In this document: positions 11,820-60,725 of the stretch, in pieces
How the letters are laid out: the number at the start of each line of letters is the position of its first letter
Position numbering within the stretch: position 1 is the first letter of the stretch
Assembly: GCA_963751455.1 (NCBI GenBank)
Contig: CAVVUN010000015.1
Span: forward strand, 1,632,001-1,696,000
DNA length: 64,000 bases
From: Nitrospirota bacterium
Lineage (GTDB): Bacteria; Nitrospirota; UBA9217
Direction: 5' to 3'
Program-made: the position numbers and the translations under genes
The notes under the pieces: model-generated
Seen by the model: the letters and a program-made list of their open reading frames with translations, nothing else
The model's database searches: none
Told to the model about the DNA's origin: nothing

Positions 11820-13295
11820 CTATCCCGGTTCATCGAGCTTCCCGAACGCCTTCAGCACCACTTCGGACAAGGCCGGATGTATATGCATGCCCTTTGCGAC
11901 CGCCCAAAGGTTGTTCTCGCCGGCCATAGCATTCACGACCTCCTGGATCAGTATCGACGCCTGGGGGCCGATAATGTGATAGCCCAGGATCTTCCCGCTC
12001 TTCCGGTGCACGACGGCTTTCGTAAAGCCCTCGGTCTCCATCATTGCTTGTCCGCGGGCAACGTCGCTGTACAGGGCTTTTCCAACCAGGATTTCTTTCT
12101 TCCCCATCAATTTGACGGCCTGCTCTTCTGTCAGTCCGACGGACGCGATCTCCGGATAGGAAAAAACAGCGTGCGGAACGGTCACGTAATTCAGCCGGGA
12201 CTTTTTTCCATGGACGACGTTGTGCCAGACCAGTTCAGCCTCGCGGTTGGCCGTATGCCGGAACATTTTCTTGCCGATGGCGTCGCCGAATGCCCAGATG
12301 TCCTTCTTCGATGTTTCGAAGTATTCGTCGACATGGATATAGCCCCGTTCGTCGGTTTTCACTCCTGTGTTTTCAACGCGCAAAAGATCGGCGTTTGATC
12401 TTCTGCCGGCGGCCACCAGGAGATGGCGGGCGCTTAGTTCGAGTTGCTTTCCGTCCCGCTTCCGGGCGCTGACAATCAGGTTTTTCCCCTCAGTGCGGAC
12501 CTCCACGGCTTCGGTATTAGAATGGACGGACATTCGGCGGGAAAGAGCGGTTTCAAGAAGTTTCGAGACTTCGGGCTCCTCATCGGGCACCAGCCGCGCA
12601 TTGCGCTGCAGGATCGTGACCTTTGTGCCTACAGCCTCGAAGAAGTGGGCAAATTCGGCAGCGATGTAGCCCCCGCCGATGATGATCATGCTGTCCGGCC
12701 GTTCCCGGAGTTCGAGGGCGCTTTCGTTCGTGAGGTACTTCACGGCCTCAATCCCTTTCACTGCGGGGATCGCCGGGCGGGCTCCGCTCGCTATCACGAT
12801 GGTCTTGCCTTTAATGGCGACGGGGTTAACGCCGTTAAAGATTCTCTCTTTATTTTCGGACGGCTTTTCGGCAGATCGCGATGTATTGATGCGCTCGTAC
12901 GATTGGTGCGCATCTTTAACCGGGTGAACTTCGAGCGTATAATCCCCGCTAAAATGAGCTTCACCGAGATAAAAATCGAAGTCATCGGCGTCCTGTAAAG
13001 AGCGTTCAATGTGATCACGGCTCGCTGTGACTTCACTCCTCATGCGTTCCATGATCGCTGCAAAATCTATCTCTTGGATTTCGGCGGTAATGCCGAATTT
13101 TTTAGCTTCGCGTATTTCAACGATTCTATCCGCCGGATAGACCAATAGTTTTGTTGGGATTCAGCCGACGTTGAGGCAGGTGCCTCCCAGCGGTCCCTTG
13201 TCCACAAGGGCCGCGGTTTTCCCATGCGCGAGAGCATCTTCGATTAGGCTTGCACCGCTGCCGCTGCCGATTATGATGACATCGTATTCTTTCAT
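11820..13295 (-). CDS. Class I pyridine nucleotide-disulfide oxidoreductase (dihydrolipoamide dehydrogenase/mycothione reductase-like), probable selenoprotein
   Basis: ATG at 13295 gives MKEYDVIIIGSGSG...GGTCLNVG-TGA(13163-13161)-IPTK, in frame with ORF 11820..13145; also GGGYIAAE, GD and HPALSE motifs. Confidence 0.88.
13126..13142 (-). promoter_or_regulatory. Candidate bacterial SECIS hairpin
   Basis: Minus-strand tctatcc-ggc-ggataga, a 7 bp perfect stem with a G-containing loop about 19 nt 3' of the in-frame TGA. Confidence 0.6.
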
Positions 13296-14638: not shown

Positions 14639-15820
14639 TTGCACGACCATATTATTAAATACACAAAGAAACTGATCCGTGACCGGACGGCTGTTCCCGA
14701 CAGCGTGCGCTTTTACGTCATGGATGATGCGCTGATAACCAACAGGCAGGATGAATGGCTGCCCGTCTTCGCGCGGGTCTTCACCGGTCTGAATATTACA
14801 GCCCTCCTGTTTGCGCGGTCCTCACTTCCCTTTACTGATTTCCTGATCGCGCGGGCTGATCCCGGTATAAACCGGATCATACCGAAGGACACCGAGACGA
14901 AGACCTTTCTGCATGATATTCCGATCGTGAGAAAAACAGAATGGTCAGGGAAAACGAATAACGAAATAGCCGCCATTTTGATGGGCGCTCTCAAGGAGCG
15001 GAAAGCCGTGATGTTGGAGGGACTTGGCGTCGTAGCAGCAGGCGGTGTAACAATCGAACAGGCCTTTAATGTGTACTCGATGATTTTTCACACAACGTTG
15101 ATTAAATACCTGCTCGATCTTCTCCATGACGGCTTCAAACTGCCGGGGGAGCCGGAAGCTTTTAAGGAGTTCAAAAGCACCTGGGTACGTCCAATCCGAA
15201 CGGAAAATCTTCACTTCGCCCCTGGCCGTTTGTCGGAGCCGGGACAGATCGTTGAGGAACTTCATCGTGTAGGAAGATATACGGTAGGGCAGGGATTGGT
15301 CGATTCTTTCTTCGGAAACATCAGTTATTTTGACGGCAAGACGATTTTTATAAGTCAGACCGCTTCTTCTCTGGACGAGTTGGAGGACCATATCGATCCT
15401 GTTCAACTCGACGCTTCTTCCACAGCCGGTATAACAGCTTCATCCGAGCTTCCTGCTCACCGGGCAATTTATCTTTCGACCGGGTGGCGGGCAGTACTGC
15501 ATGGTCATCCGAAATTCAGCGTCATACTCTCAATGCACTGCCGGGAGGAGGACTGCGGCGTCGAGGATTGCGGCAGGGATTGCAAACGCAGACGCTCGGC
15601 GGGAGGCGTGCCAATCGTTTCCGGTGAAATAGGCGCAGGCGGACTGGCCAGGACCGTACCGAAGGCGACCAGCGAGGCGGGCGCCTGCATCGTGTACGGT
15701 CATGGCGTATTTTCGGCCGGAGAGAACGGTTTCCGTGAGGCCTTTATCAGGATGGCCGAGGTCGAGAACCGCTGCCGCGACGAGTATTTCAGGCTTTTTG
15801 AAATAAAGATCACGGCCTGA
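14639..15820 (+). CDS. Class II aldolase/adducin family protein with a degenerate N-terminal repeat domain
   Basis: GNIS, SSELPAHRAIY, VLHGHP and GHGV metal-binding motifs in the C-terminal half. Confidence 0.8.
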   Translation: MHDHIIKYTKKLIRDRTAVPDSVRFYVMDDALITNRQDEWLPVFARVFTGLNITALLFARSSLPFTDFLIARADPGINRIIPKDTETKTFLHDIPIVRKTEWSGKTNNEIAAILMGALKERKAVMLEGLGVVAAGGVTIEQAFNVYSMIFHTTLIKYLLDLLHDGFKLPGEPEAFKEFKSTWVRPIRTENLHFAPGRLSEPGQIVEELHRVGRYTVGQGLVDSFFGNISYFDGKTIFISQTASSLDELEDHIDPVQLDASSTAGITASSELPAHRAIYLSTGWRAVLHGHPKFSVILSMHCREEDCGVEDCGRDCKRRRSAGGVPIVSGEIGAGGLARTVPKATSEAGACIVYGHGVFSAGENGFREAFIRMAEVENRCRDEYFRLFEIKITA

Positions 15821-37015: not shown

Positions 37016-37438
37016 TTGTCGACCAGAGCGAAATTATTTACAGTATTGTTCAGTATCCTTTTCCCTTTGGCAGCGCTGGCCCAGGCGCAATTTCCGCTTA
37101 TCGGCGCAGATGATGTAAAAGTCCACTTAAAGGGAAAGCGGGCGGTTTTGATCGATACCAGGAATCCTGATGAATATCGTTCAGGGCATATACCGGGTGC
37201 CATCAATATCCCGGCGGAGCAGGTGAAACTGCAGGCGAGTCGTCTTCCAAAAGACAAGTCCGTTCCGCTAATTTTTTACTGCAGGGGGGCCGGCTGATCG
37301 CTCAGCAGTATGGCCGCAGGGGCGGCCACAGAGCTGGGATATAAGAAACTGATGATTTACCAGGCAGGTATGCCGGACTGGTTGATGAAGGGCTACCCGG
37401 TGATAAAAGGCGGTCAACCGGGAAAATTCAACAACTAA
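37016..37438 (+). CDS. Secreted rhodanese-domain protein, probable selenoprotein
   Basis: IDTR..EY..GHIPGA, IFYCRGAG-TGA(37295-37297)-SLS...LGY....Y..G..DW...GYPV; the domain is completed only by TGA readthrough. Confidence 0.85.
37311..37328 (+). promoter_or_regulatory. Candidate bacterial SECIS hairpin
   Basis: tggccgc-aggg-gcggcca, 13 nt after the in-frame TGA. Confidence 0.65.
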
Positions 37439-55777: not shown

Positions 55778-58700
55778 ATGAAGAAGATTGAAAACAGCAA
55801 GCTGTACAGCGTGGACGATCTCAAACAAACGCGCGACGCCATGGACTTCATGGCGAACCTCCTGCAGTCCTCCACGGAGTATTCCATCATCGGCAAGGAC
55901 CTCGACGGAAAGGTCCTGCTCTGGAACGAGGGCGCCCGCCGGATTTACGGGTACGACTCCGAGGAAGTGGTCGGCAAGGCGAACTCCTCCATCCTCCACA
56001 CCGAGGAAGACGTCAAGTCCGGCAAGCCTCACCAGATGATAGATGCGGCCCTGCGCGAGGGTAAATGGGAAGGCACGATCAACCGGCGCAGGAAGAACGG
56101 GGAGCATCTTCAACGCGCGCGTCGTCATCACCCCCCGGCGGGACGAAGCGGGCAAGCCCATAGGCTTTCTGCTCATCTCGAAGGACATCTCGAACGAGAT
56201 GCGCTTTACCGAGCAGCTCAGGAAGGCGAAGCTCTTCGACAGCGCCATCGTGTCGAACGCCCAGGAGGCGGTGGACTTCATCACGAACATCCTCGAGTCC
56301 TCCACCGAGTATTCGGTCATCGGTAAGGACCTGGACGGCAAGATCCTGCTCTGGAACGAAGGCGCCCGGCGTCTCTACGGGTTCGAGCCGGAAGAGGTCG
56401 TGGGCAAGGCCAACTCCTCGATCCTCCATACGGAGGAGGACGTGGCCACGGGAAAACCCCGGGAGATCCTGGACGCGGCCCTGCACAACGGCAAATGGGA
56501 AGGCACGATCACCCGCCGCAGGAAAAACGGCGAGCTCTTCAAGGCCCGGGTCGTCATCACCCCCCGCCGCGACTCGCTCGGCCGGGCCATCGGCTTCCTG
56601 CTCATCTCGAAGGACATCTCGGACGAAATCCGGCTCACCGAACAGTTAAAGTCAACCCAGTTTTATACCCGGTCGCTCATCGAATCGAACATCGACGCTC
56701 TCATGGCCACGGACCCGCTCGGCATCATAAGCGACGTGAACAAGCAGATGGTGACCCTGACCGGCTACACGCGGGACGAACTAATCGGCTCTCCGTTCAA
56801 GAACTATTTCACCGATCCCGAGCGTGCGGAGGAAGGCATCAAGCTGGTGCTGCGCGAGGGCAAGGTCACGAACTACGAACTCACCGCCCTTTCCAAGACC
56901 GGCAAGAAAACGGTGGTCTCCTACAACGCGTCCACGTTCCGCGACGCCGAGGGCAAGCTCCAGGGCGTGTTCGCGGCGGCCCGCGACATTACCGAGCAGA
57001 AAGAGCTGGAGCAGAGGCTCCGCGAGTCCGAAGCTTACAACCGCGGGCTCATTGAGGCCTCGGTGGACGGCCTGATCACGGTCGATCCCACGGGCTCGAT
57101 CTCCGACGTGAACGCGCGCATGTGCCAGATGTCGGGCTATACCCGGGAGGAACTTACCGGCACGCCCTTCATCGATTATTTCGTGGACAGCGAACGTGCG
57201 GACTCGGGCGTCCGTCAGACCTTCGATCAGGGGGTGGTCACGGATTACGCGCTTACCATGGCCACCCGGGACGGCAGGCAGCTGATCGTGTCGTTCAACG
57301 CGTCGGTGTTTAAAGACCCCTCGGGAGAGGTGCGCGGGATCTTCGCCTCCGCGCGCGACATCACCGATCAGGCGAGGCTCCAGACCCAGATCTCTGAAGA
57401 ACGGGCTTACAACCGGGGTCTCATCGAGGCTTCCCTGGACGGCCTGATCACGGTGGATCCCATGCTGAACATCACGGACGTGAACGAGACCATGTGCCGC
57501 ATGGCCGGCTACGCCAGAAAGGAACTCATCGGCTCGCCGTTCCCGGACTATTTCACCGATGCCAGGCGGGCGGCCGAGGGTGTCAGGCTCACCCTCGACA
57601 AGGGGGCCGTGACCAACTACGAGCTTACCCTCCACAGCAAAGACGGAGCGGAGCAACTGGTCTCCTTCAACGCCGCCATATTCAAGGACGAGGCCGGCGC
57701 GGTGCGCGGGATCTTCGCCAGCGCCCGTAACATCACGGAGCAGACGAAATTACAGGCCCAGCTTGCCGAAGAGCGGGCGTACAACCGCGGCCTCATCGAG
57801 GCCTCCGTGGACGGCCTGGTCACGGTCGACGAGGCCATGCTGATCACGGACGTGAACGAGACCATGTGCCGCATGGCCGGCAGGACCAGAAACCAGATCA
57901 TCGGGTCTTCGTTCCCCACTTACTTCTCCGAACGGGACCTGGCGGCCGAGGGCGTGCACCTCACGTTTAAAGAAGGGTCCGTCACCAACTACGTTTTGAC
58001 CCTGCAAGCCGTGAAAGGGCAAAAGGTGCCGGTCTCTTTCAACGCGGCCGTGTTCAAGGACGCCTCCGGCAAGGTGCGCGGCATCTTCGCCTCGGCCCGC
58101 GACATCACCGAGCAGAAGAAGCTCGAAGCCCAGCTCCAGGCCTCGCAGTTCTACACCCGGTCGCTCATCGAATCGAACATCGACGCACTCATGACCACGG
58201 ACCCGGTCGGCATCATCACTGACGTAAACCAGCAGATGGAGGCCCTTACCGGCCATACCCGTGAAGAGCTGATCGGCTCTCCCTTCAAGAACTTCTTCAC
58301 CGAGCCGCAAAGGGCCGAGGAAGGCATCAAAATCGTGGTCCGCGAAGGCAGGGTCACGAACTACGAACTCACGGCCAGGAGCAAACAGGGCAAGAAAACG
58401 GTCGTGTCCTACAACGCCGCCACGTTTGCCGACCGCGATAGGAAGCTTTCGGGTGTGTTCGCCGCAGCCCGCGACATCACCGAACAGAAAAAACTGGAGC
58501 AGCAGTTACGGGATTCCCAGGCGTACAACCGGGGCCTCATCGAGGCCTCCGTTGACGGCCTCATCACCGTGGACCCCGAGGGCATCATCAGCGACGTTAA
58601 CGACCGCATGTGCCAGATGAGCGGCTACACCCGGGGCGAGCTGATCGGCACGCCGTTCTCCGACTATTTCACGGACCCGGCCCTGGCCACCGCGGGCGTC

Positions 58701-60725
58701 AAGGAAACCTTCGAGAAGGGGATCGTGACCGAGTACGCGCTGACCCTGATTTCCCGGACTCGTCGATTCCTGCAGGTGTCGTTCAACGCCTCGGTGTTCA
58801 AGGACCCGTCCGGCAGCGTGCGCGGCATCTTCGCCTCCGCCCGCGACATCACGGATCGCGTCCGCCTTGAAGAGCAGCTTCGTGAGCAGCAGACGTATCT
58901 CCGCGGGCTCATCGAGTCCTCGGTGGACGGCCTCATCACCGTGGACCCCGAAGGGTTCATCACGGACGTAAACGAGCAGATGTGCCGCATGACCGGGTAC
59001 AGCAGAGACGAGTTGATCGGGTCGTCCTTCAGGCAATACTTCACCGAACCCCAGCGGGCCGACGTCGGCGTCAAATCCACCTTCGCCCAGGGCGTGGTCA
59101 CAAACTACGCCCTGGTCCTCAAAACAAAAACCGGCCGGAAGGCCACGGTGTCCTTCAACGCGTCGGTCTTCCGCGCGGGAGACGGAAGGGTGCAGGGCAT
59201 CTTCGCCTCGGCCCGCGACATCAGCGAACAGGCCCGGCTCCAGACCCAGCTCGTGGATCAGCAGGCCTACAACCGGTCGCTGATCGAAGCCTCCGCGGAC
59301 GCGCTCTTCGCCATTGCGCCCGACGGCGCGATCACGGACGTGAACGAGGAAGCGACCCGGCTCACCGGCTACTCGCGGAAACACCTGGTCAACTCCGGGT
59401 TCGCGGGATACTTCACCGAGCCCCTTCGCGCGAGCGAAGGCGTCAGCCAGACGCTCGCGCAGGGCCGCGTGCTCGCGTACGAACTGGTCCTGATCACGCG
59501 CCAGAATAGAAGGATCGCGGTCTCCTTCAACGCGGGCGTATTCTCCGACGCGGCGGGAAAACAGCTCGGCATCCTTGCCGGCGCCCGCGACATCACGGAC
59601 CAGAAGAAACTGGAGCAGCAGCTTCGCGATCAGCAGTTCTACTCCCGGTCCCTGATCGAGTCCAACATCGACGCGCTCATGACCACGGACCCGGTGGGAA
59701 TCATCACGGACGTGAACCAGCAGATGGAGGCCCTGACCGGCTACAACCGGGAGGAGCTCATCGGCGCGCCGTTCAAGACCTACTTCACCGACCCCAAGCT
59801 GGCCGAGGAAGGCATCCGGCTCGTGCTCAGGGAAGGCAACGTTACGAACTACGAGCTCACCGCCAGGAGCAAGCAGGGCAGGGAAACGGTCGTGTCCTAC
59901 AACGCCACCACGTTCGCGGACCGGGACGGAAAACTGCAGGGCGTGTTCGCCGCGGCCCGGGACGTGACGGAACGCAAGCGTTTCGAGCAGACGCTGCAGG
60001 AGAAGAGCGTTGAAATGGAGAACGCCAACCTGTCCAAGGACCGCTTCCTGGCCAGCATGAGCCACGAGCTCCGGACCCCGCTAAACGCCGTCATCGGGTT
60101 CACCGGCACGCTGCTCATGAAGCTCCCCGGGCCTTTGACGAGCGATCAGGAAGGCCAGCTCCAGAACATCTCGACCAGCGCCAAGCATCTGCTTCTGCTC
60201 ATCAATGATCTGCTGGATCTGGCCAAGATCGAGTCGGGCAAGGTCGAGCTCAAGCTCGAACCCATCTCGTGCCAGAGCATTGTGCAGGAAGTGGCTTCGA
60301 CACTCCTGCCCATGGCGGCCAGCAAGGGCCTCAAGCTCACCGTCATCGTGCCGGACAGAGAACTGGTGCTGAATACGGACCGGCGGTCCCTTTCCCAGGT
60401 CCTCTTGAACCTCACCTACAACGCCATTAAATTTACCGAAAAGGGCGAGGTGAAGCTGGAGCTGAGGCACAACCACCACGGCGGGCTCGTGCGGATCGAA
60501 TTCCGCGTGATCGACACGGGCATCGGCATCAAACCCGAGGACCAGGCAATGCTCTTCCAGGCGTTCACGCAGGTGGATTCCTCGAGCGCACGCCGTTACG
60601 AAGGCACCGGCCTGGGCCTGCACCTGAGCCAGAAGCTCGCCGAGCTCCTGAACGGCCGCATCTCCTTCAAGAGCGACTACGGCAAGGGGAGCGAGTTTAT
60701 GATGGTGTTGGAAGAGCAGCGGTGA
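55778..60725 (+). CDS. Cytoplasmic histidine kinase with 11 PAS domains; +1 frameshift near 56100-56107
   Basis: PAS1 starts in ORF 55745 and continues in ORF 56043; ends with SHELRTPL, DTGIG and GTGLGL. Confidence 0.85.

Follow-up and report, generated by a model that had tools for sequence, protein, structure and literature searches.

A major question raised by this locus is whether a stop codon within an otherwise intact flavoprotein gene marks a catalytic residue and, if so, what kind of reaction the enzyme may catalyze. The window, the whole 64,000-nucleotide stretch of Nitrospirota DNA analyzed here, carries on its minus strand a frame that runs from an ATG at 13295 to a TAG at 11820 and is interrupted by only one internal stop, a TGA within GGTCLNVG-TGA-IPTK. 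An earlier note on this DNA had placed this TGA on the second catalytic cysteine of a disulfide reductase whose 491 codons are otherwise intact, and both the frame and an alignment with Cys44 of the mycothione reductase (Mtr) of R. erythropolis bear this out. Its observation that the mechanical open reading frame begins late likewise holds, as that frame starts at TTG 13145 and yields 441 amino acids; the entry in the public protein collection, P0002, is the same truncated form, without the FAD motif and both catalytic residues. The complete protein has the GxGxG and HPALSE motifs described in the note, as GSGSG at residues 10-14 and at residues 473-478, respectively, and ends in ...FGKLDEPG, with no second redox center and no C-terminal cysteines. 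The features of the locus are as follows.

11820 to 13295, minus strand: class I flavoprotein disulfide reductase gene, Mtr/NF004947-like, with predicted selenocysteine (Sec) 45; 491 codons
13377 to 13404, minus strand: sigma70-like promoter match TTGACT-16-TG-TACAAT, 82 nt 5' of the ATG
13254 to 13268, minus strand: GSGSG for FAD binding, residues 10-14, missing from the database protein
13176 to 13178, minus strand: Cys40 (TGC), which aligns with Mtr Cys39 and would, given the role of that residue in PMC10910545, attack the substrate
13161 to 13163, minus strand: in-frame TGA, codon 45, predicted selenocysteine at the position of the flavin-side Cys44 in R. erythropolis Mtr; relatives have TGA or TGC/TGT here
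13125 to 13141, minus strand: predicted bacterial SECIS, a 7-bp stem with a GGC loop within the V-Y-P-A-D-R codons, conserved with the TGA
12822 to 12926, minus strand: insertion of ~33 residues (residues ~124-158), of low model confidence and rare in relatives
12585 to 12677, minus strand: NADPH-type nucleotide site by alignment, G207-x-G209-Y-I-A212 and Q230-R231-N-x-R234
11862 to 11879, minus strand: acid-base pair His473-Pro-Ala-Leu-Ser-Glu478, by alignment
37295 to 37297, plus strand: another predicted Sec codon, within the gene of a rhodanese-domain protein, FYCRGAG-TGA-SLS (UxxS), with Cys in a paralogue and a G-loop hairpin

The promoter match is within chance, with two such matches found and 2.4 expected.

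The machinery for Sec insertion was sought in the genome as selA, selB, selC, and selD, and all four are present. The selA gene (605.8 bits) adjoins selB (373.4 bits) on contig C1, both over cut-off, while one tRNA-Sec(UCA) is found at C1:369631 and another on the small contig C13; the anticodon-UCA tRNAs of this genome (G000) are tRNA-Sec. A Sec-type selD on C2, also over cut-off, carries its own in-frame TGA and hairpin and is frameshifted near C2:130,520 of the assembly (G000:C2:129959-130880; L010, L011). An assembly indel is the likelier cause, because contig C13 is also full of frameshifts; in three other genomes (G006, G002, and G080) selD is a single unbroken match each. Contig G000:C13 (9355 bp), possibly a contaminating or low-quality contig, carries, in addition to this divergent tRNA-Sec(UCA), a class I reductase of the Cys type that is broken and, as named by eye, a YedF-like gene and a rhodanese.

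A screen for Sec/Cys pairs across the genome returned ~45 raw matches, mostly shadow frames, among which the plausible Sec genes, chosen by eye, are three rhodaneses, a DsbA-like gene, an MvhD-like gene, a methyltransferase-like gene, and the reductase gene. Besides the reductase, likely Sec codons lie at window 37295 on the plus strand and at G000 C15:452431, C2:598852, C1:272019, C3:9907, and C15:1162578; these genes, again assigned by eye (the DsbA-like one as UPYC), resemble catalogued types. The candidate in the window, which the earlier note had cited as a second case of Sec usage, proves to be real, as the TGA of the rhodanese gene aligns with the Cys of its paralogue and is accompanied by a G-loop hairpin. 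Rhodaneses of the UxxS form are a catalogued selenoprotein type (PMC13188914). Among the five class I reductases of the genome, the gene at 13295-11820 is the only one with TGA in its motif.

How the codon varies among relatives was followed with the N-terminal 121 residues of the reductase as query against 64 genomes of the host's Nitrospirota family. Matches occur in 57 of these genomes, with TGA in 27 of the 57 (28 matches) and Cys in the remainder, so that the alternation between TGA and Cys anticipated in the note does occur. The TGA is at active-site column 45 in all 28 matches, and neither TAA nor TAG was found at that column among the matches in the 57 genomes. Either selA or selB is present in 23 of the 27 TGA genomes. 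The four in which both are missing are 96% (G006), 89% (G002), 86% (G019), and 63% (G017) complete; G006 still has tRNA-Sec and a Sec-type selD and G002 a Sec-type selD, while in G019 and G017 none of selA, selB, tRNA-Sec, and Sec-type selD was found. As 25 of the 30 Cys-only genomes of the family keep selA or selB, the Cys form is no consequence of loss of the machinery, and because many close Cys relatives are among these, Sec is not required for function.

A metagenome scan, using a pattern that fixes Cys-x4-TGA and so cannot return Cys forms or provide a Sec:Cys ratio, yielded 59 loci, of which 48 belong to the family of the reductase and 11 are scattered in other class I reductases or out of context. 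Elsewhere in the phylum, 13 of 337 genomes match, and the one flagged as TGA (G348) has TGC at the active site. In the phylum of locus L102 (labelled Chloroflexi), 12 of 301 genomes gave 13 matches, and in that of homologue L112, 301 genomes gave 2 matches; none of these is a TGA form, and no Sec form outside Nitrospirota was found in the genomes searched. One further TGA gene, L078, comes from the same phylum as the window gene. A protein search at the level of 50% clusters gave no clear set of Sec-truncated forms; CxxxxC is present in 102 of its 150 proteins, and two of the 150 appear to start just past position 45. Comparison of 43 Sec with 28 Cys rows reveals no column that cleanly separates them except that of the Sec codon itself; the strongest other, just 3' of the hairpin, has V59 in 28 of 43 Sec rows as opposed to Met in 27 of 28 Cys rows.

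The earlier note had also described a 7-bp hairpin with a G loop about 19 nt past the TGA. This too is confirmed, with the stem TCTATCC/GGATAGA starting 19 nt and the 3-nt GGC loop 26 nt past the stop codon. The bacterial SECIS consensus given in PMC13188914 calls for a loop of 3-9 nt, a stem of 4-16 bp, a G in the first two loop positions, a spacing of 16-37 nt, and an energy at or below -7.5 kcal/mol. The hairpin fits in loop, stem, G, and spacing (7 bp, GGC, 26 nt), and its energy is borderline against this limit, at -6.7 kcal/mol for the 17-mer and -8.0 kcal/mol for a 28-nt stretch with flanks. Folding of the 74 nt around it gives z = -0.70, so that the energy alone is not beyond chance, and when 4000 TGAs were drawn at random from the contig, 4% had an equal stem. 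Taken alone, then, the hairpin is weak, and its significance comes from its conservation with the TGA.

That conservation is evident in 127 distinct 60-nt windows, from which those cut by a contig end were excluded. A stem of at least 7 bp is found in 45 of 48 family TGA windows as opposed to none of 48 family Cys windows, in 1 of 23 other Cys windows, and in none of 8 other TGA windows. When the peptide is held at YPADR, 42 of 43 TGA genes but none of 27 Cys genes have the stem, so the conserved hairpin that the note had proposed to look for exists, but only with TGA. The YPADR codons are frozen in the TGA genes (TAT 43/43, CCG 43/43, GCG 42/43, GAT 42/43, AGR 43/43) while the Cys genes use varied synonymous codons, and in the TGA genes the codons 5' of the hairpin vary freely. 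As a control, the 11 metagenome TGA loci in other class I reductases included 8 that could be scored, none with a stem of even 6 bp. A compensatory change of the outer pair from U-A to C-G occurs in 3 of 53 sequences, a level reached by 9 of 500 shuffles, and RNAalifold recovers only an upper stem of 6-7 bp, with no conserved lower stem.

Trees were inferred from proteins of at least 380 amino acids with scores of at least 850, after deletion of the Sec codon and the 14 residues that follow it. Sec/Cys changes number 15 on a FastTree tree of 119 rows, where strongly supported branches force at least 8 of them; a 50-row quick run of IQ-TREE gives 11, of which at least 6 are forced. These trees do not fix the direction of each change. 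Because kin are not independent, the association of hairpin and codon was also counted over independent pairs on the trees, where the hairpin sides with TGA in 6-7 of 8 and in none with Cys (sign test p 0.016-0.031). Within the family clade the early branches, at weakly supported basal forks, lead to Sec forms, which suggests an old gain of Sec with repeated returns to Cys. The L078 gene lies on a separate branch and has a TGA without the 7-bp hairpin, with a longer alternative fold (L078:5133-5192); its genome has selA, tRNA-Sec, and a Sec-type selD, and it is possibly an independent gain of Sec.

Another type of variation is represented by a second Sec clade. Five genomes have a paralogue, ~54% identical, that shares both the TGA and the hairpin (L219-L223: G013:C21, G052:C418, G002:C2, G051:C209, G053:C321). 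In the three for which the C terminus is available, the catalytic His is replaced by Phe (HAFPTL-A/P-E). In G013 the TGA is found in both main gene and paralogue, while G052 combines a Cys main gene with a Sec paralogue. In both trees the paralogues are placed among Cys rows and not with the main Sec clade, which means either two origins of Sec or an exchange of the segment. One paralogue (L222) directly follows the gene of a PLP enzyme of Cys/Met metabolism.

Two other ways of reading the codon can be judged from these patterns. Were the TGA a nonsense mutation or an assembly error, with the gene dead or really encoding Cys, precedent could be claimed in the indel errors or lesions elsewhere in the assembly (selD and contig C13) and in the scattered hairpin-less TGAs of other class I reductases (11 of the 59 metagenome loci). 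However, this TGA recurs in 27 genomes and 48 metagenome loci, followed each time by a frame of full length and accompanied by the frozen hairpin, and the family scan found no TAA or TAG at column 45; this conservation effectively refutes such a reading, to which scarcely any probability can still be given. The UGA might instead be read as Cys or Trp, or serve as a selenium-dependent on/off switch in which Sec is not catalytic. In keeping with this, Cys versions are common in genomes that retain selA or selB (25 of 30), which makes selenium appear dispensable, and failed read-through would yield a dead product of 44 residues; yet the UGA is confined to the position of a catalytic Cys, a SECIS-type hairpin goes with it at the distance of the consensus in PMC13188914, and the anticodon-UCA tRNAs of the genome are tRNA-Sec, so that the proposal is very improbable. 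The seleno-enzyme proposed in the note is thus supported by the Sec machinery, the TGA/Cys alternation, and a hairpin conserved only with TGA, and these sequence patterns indicate that the UGA of the reductase gene is very likely read as selenocysteine.

What the enzyme does is a more difficult issue. Pfam models PF07992, PF00070, and PF02852, representing the FAD, NAD(P)H Rossmann, and interface domains, are all over cut-off in the reductase, and its predicted model (pLDDT 92.5, pTM 0.90) matches the class I family with TM scores of 0.82-0.86. Residues 130-150, with pLDDT <50, lie inside the ~33-residue insertion, which is lacking at residues ~124-158 in 68 of 71 rows; two of 70 relatives have unrelated insertions there. 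The redox pair of the class is present as CxxxxU, and His473 and Glu478 are invariant in all 71 rows. The best solved relatives, by sequence as well as by fold, are mycothione reductases (8qcj; E 4e-85, TM 0.86). According to PMC10910545, Cys39 of Mtr attacks the substrate while electrons pass from FAD to the proximal cysteine, and position 45 would therefore be the flavin-side residue by elimination.

At the nucleotide site, the motif is GxGxxA in 41 of 43 Sec rows and in all 28 Cys rows, and position 230 is Gln, not Glu, in all 43 Sec rows, as it always is across the 43 Sec and 28 Cys rows together. The NAD-type fingerprint combines GxGxxG with an acidic residue, and the two other lipoamide dehydrogenases (Lpds) of the genome have GxGxxG and Glu. 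Arg231, the counterpart of Mtr Arg199, is present in 43 of 43 Sec rows, while the equivalent of Mtr Arg205 is Pro in 40 of 43, with another Arg at +3 in 41 of 43 (RXXXXXR 2'-phosphate motif). These residues make use of NADPH likely, though not certain, the preference being only partly supported because the second 2'-phosphate arginine (Mtr/GR Arg205) is Pro.

Named families do not accommodate the protein readily, as it passes no cut-off among the best 25 of 41 NCBIfam models. The nearest, NF004947 (PRK06292.2-5), scores 575.6 bits against a cut-off of 592, in two stretches split by the insertion. Mycothione reductase proper was rejected on scores (NF005884, 410.6 < 501; TIGR03452, 376.4 < 635.65) and because mshC is not over cut-off in the host, and dihydrolipoamide dehydrogenase on its score (TIGR01350, 352.3 < 408.8) and on GxGxxA with Gln in place of GxGxxG with an acidic residue. 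The mercuric reductase MerA typically bears a pair of C-terminal cysteines; these are absent here, and its model is also below cut-off (334.8 < 454.45). High-Mr thioredoxin reductase (TIGR01438, 162.7 < 475.85) is excluded by the lack of a C-terminal Cys-Sec center, and the CoADR-type selenoprotein (TIGR03385, UGxP) by the motif CLNVGUIP that stands in its place and a score of 82 < 458 for NF007123. The reductase is a predicted NADPH-type enzyme that most resembles Mtr and is not the lipoamide dehydrogenase of the genome. Of the Mtr/Lpd-like assignment made in the note, then, the Mtr half stands, but the Lpd half does not, as the NADPH fingerprints are unlike those of the two true Lpds. Many homologues (L030, L031, L037, L085, L101, and others) end in His-rich tails; the window protein does not.

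Clues to the substrate come largely from homology and from what the genome lacks. In this genome, scored 100% complete and 5.37% contaminated, GCS2, gshA, and bshC have no match, and the best mshC match scores 293.8 against a cut-off of 485.1 and is probably a CysRS. No ligase for glutathione, mycothiol, or bacillithiol thus turned up, and the enzyme therefore likely acts on a different small disulfide, most likely one such as cystine, CoA disulfide, or the disulfide of an undiscovered thiol.

Gene neighborhoods add little to this assignment. Around the Nitrospirota gene, htrA occurs in 25 of 110 loci (many of them short), typA in 23, and an outer-membrane protein in 21, with a class II aldolase upstream. 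A scan of neighbors (132 of 140 ORFs from 36 of 38 loci) found no conserved redox partner by the Nitrospirota gene, whose chromosomal place is fixed without hinting at a substrate. The aldolase of the window (14639 to 15820, plus strand), kept upstream of the reductase in Nitrospirota, has an N-terminal part of ~200 residues without a Pfam match. In four of the 36 sampled loci, all with distant Cys forms, genes for glutaredoxin, FTR-rubredoxin, MsrA/B, or GPx lie directly downstream; those following Cys homologues L082, L084, L086, and L112 are, in turn, glutaredoxin and FTR-rubredoxin, MsrB-MsrA, glutaredoxin, and a GPx/di-haem peroxidase fusion. In seven loci gcvH lies ~4 kb from the reductase homologue, and gcvT adjoins one archaeal homologue. 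In the host genome, one true Lpd adjoins gcvH on C1, and that gcvH is the sole lipoyl-motif match of a crude pattern scan.

The reading preferred here, held with somewhat more confidence than doubt, is a Sec-containing, NADPH-dependent FAD reductase of the Mtr type whose Cys40-Sec45 pair likely recycles a small disulfide other than those of glutathione, mycothiol, and bacillithiol. A Sec enzyme could instead pass its electrons to a protein partner of the glutaredoxin or rhodanese type, or to an inorganic sulfur, selenium, or metalloid species, and this is a less probable though serious possibility. The absence of the known low-molecular-weight thiol ligases tested would suit such an acceptor, as would the several predicted Sec rhodaneses and the DsbA-like selenoprotein of the genome, the glutaredoxins that follow two archaeal homologues, the reduction of tellurite by R. 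erythropolis Mtr (PMC10910545), and the paralogous Sec clade without the catalytic His. The main clade nevertheless keeps the full GR/Mtr set (Cys40, His473, Glu478), the window protein has neither a C-terminal shuttle motif nor an N-terminal metal-binding domain, and no redox partner is conserved beside the gene in Nitrospirota. That the gene encodes a seleno-form of dihydrolipoamide dehydrogenase is improbable. The best NCBIfam model, NF004947, is named dihydrolipoyl dehydrogenase and comes close to its cut-off (575.6 of 592 bits), many JGI/NCBI names of the Cys orthologues say dihydrolipoamide dehydrogenase, and gcvH and gcvT are occasional neighbors (gcvH ~4 kb away in seven loci, gcvT beside one archaeal homologue); but the TIGR01350 score (352.3 against 408.8) and the missing NAD-type GxGxxG/acidic residue speak against it, as the genome's two other Lpds have both features and one of them adjoins gcvH.

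Under the preferred reading of a small-disulfide reductase, and by analogy with GR and Mtr, SelB would bind the hairpin and Sec would be inserted at codon 45. In the homodimer, NADPH would reduce FAD, and the flavin would give two electrons to the Se-S bond of Cys40-Sec45 by way of Sec45. Cys40, helped by His473'-Glu478', would then attack the substrate disulfide, and the Sec45 selenolate would resolve the mixed disulfide. Selenium should, compared with sulfur, be a better nucleophile and leaving group and resist irreversible oxidation. In this enzyme it probably speeds the flavin-side and resolving steps or guards the site from over-oxidation, while remaining replaceable by Cys. Because Sec and Cys swap often and no other catalytic column differs, the comparisons suggest that selenium tunes the enzyme rather than creates new chemistry. 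A more speculative extension, offered only tentatively, is that a selenolate-flavin intermediate forms; that the enzyme recycles an undiscovered low-molecular-weight thiol of Nitrospirota, and of archaea with the Cys form, in which glutathione, mycothiol, and bacillithiol are missing; that Sec was gained or lost at least 6-8 times; and that in the His-less Sec clade selenium acts as if replacing the His-Glu pair.

Comparison with known systems illustrates how far the parallels extend. With R. erythropolis Mtr (PDB 8qcj; PMC10910545), the reductase shares 36% identity and a TM score of 0.86, with C40/U45 corresponding to C39/C44, H473/E478 to H442/E447, and R231 to R199; it differs in having Sec for Cys44, Pro for the phosphate Arg R205, the 33-residue insertion, and a host without mshC over cut-off. 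The Cys orthologues (NF004947, named "dihydrolipoyl dehydrogenase") are 70-80% identical and at the same locus in Nitrospirota, and the archaeal Cys members of the NF004947 group are 40-58% identical; unlike the Cys orthologues, the window gene has UGA and a predicted SECIS. They probably correspond to what PMC10910545 calls "archaeal DLD", a group found there to cluster with Mtr. High-Mr (animal) thioredoxin reductase is of the same fold family and also a selenoprotein, but it has CVNVGC as flavin-side motif and Sec in a C-terminal center (PMC4275836), a second center that the window reductase lacks. The haloarchaeal bis-gamma-glutamylcystine reductase (GCR), an NADPH-dependent class I small-disulfide reductase with homologues mis-annotated as DHD according to PMC7278568, offers by its description a precedent for the proposed role; the genome studied here has no gshA/GCS2 match.

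The earlier note had further placed selenium directly at the flavin, which is supported, with the qualification that a predicted precedent exists in the catalogued CoADR-type selenoprotein (UGxP). The redox residue of that type would face the flavin. That type is likewise a predicted bacterial flavoprotein disulfide reductase with Sec at the redox residue, and PMC13188914 lists it, with type III SQR (HxxU), among flavoprotein selenoproteins. CoADRs rely on one active-site Cys and make up a clade of their own (PMC10910545), whereas the window reductase (P0001) combines a Cys/Sec pair with a His-Glu pair.

A class I enzyme with CxxxxU is absent from the 119 families of the 2026 selenoprotein catalogue (PMC13188914, Table 1), and no such Sec reductase family appears in the available parts of PMC9312934, PMC13326102 (BSepDB), PMC13745706, PMC12013277, and bioRxiv 2021.03.15.435355. 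Full-text literature, mostly open-access papers, gave no Sec form of dihydrolipoamide dehydrogenase or mycothione reductase. With respect to the catalogues consulted, this is very probably an uncatalogued selenoprotein family within a known enzyme class, and one that gene callers truncate with loss of the FAD motif and both catalytic residues. In this family selenium would occupy the flavin-side position in the GR/Lpd/Mtr redox pair, where no natural Sec example was found in the portions of the print literature covered. The coexistence of Sec and Cys versions 70-80% identical to each other provides natural pairs for testing the benefit of Sec over Cys, with a spectral readout from the flavin. 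The reductase may also point to an undiscovered thiol buffer in Nitrospirota and to the function of the Mtr-like "archaeal DLD" group.

Elsewhere in the window, a histidine kinase of 1560 amino acids with about ten PAS domains is encoded at 56043 to 60725 on the plus strand, 3' of a CheB/CheR-PAS fusion.
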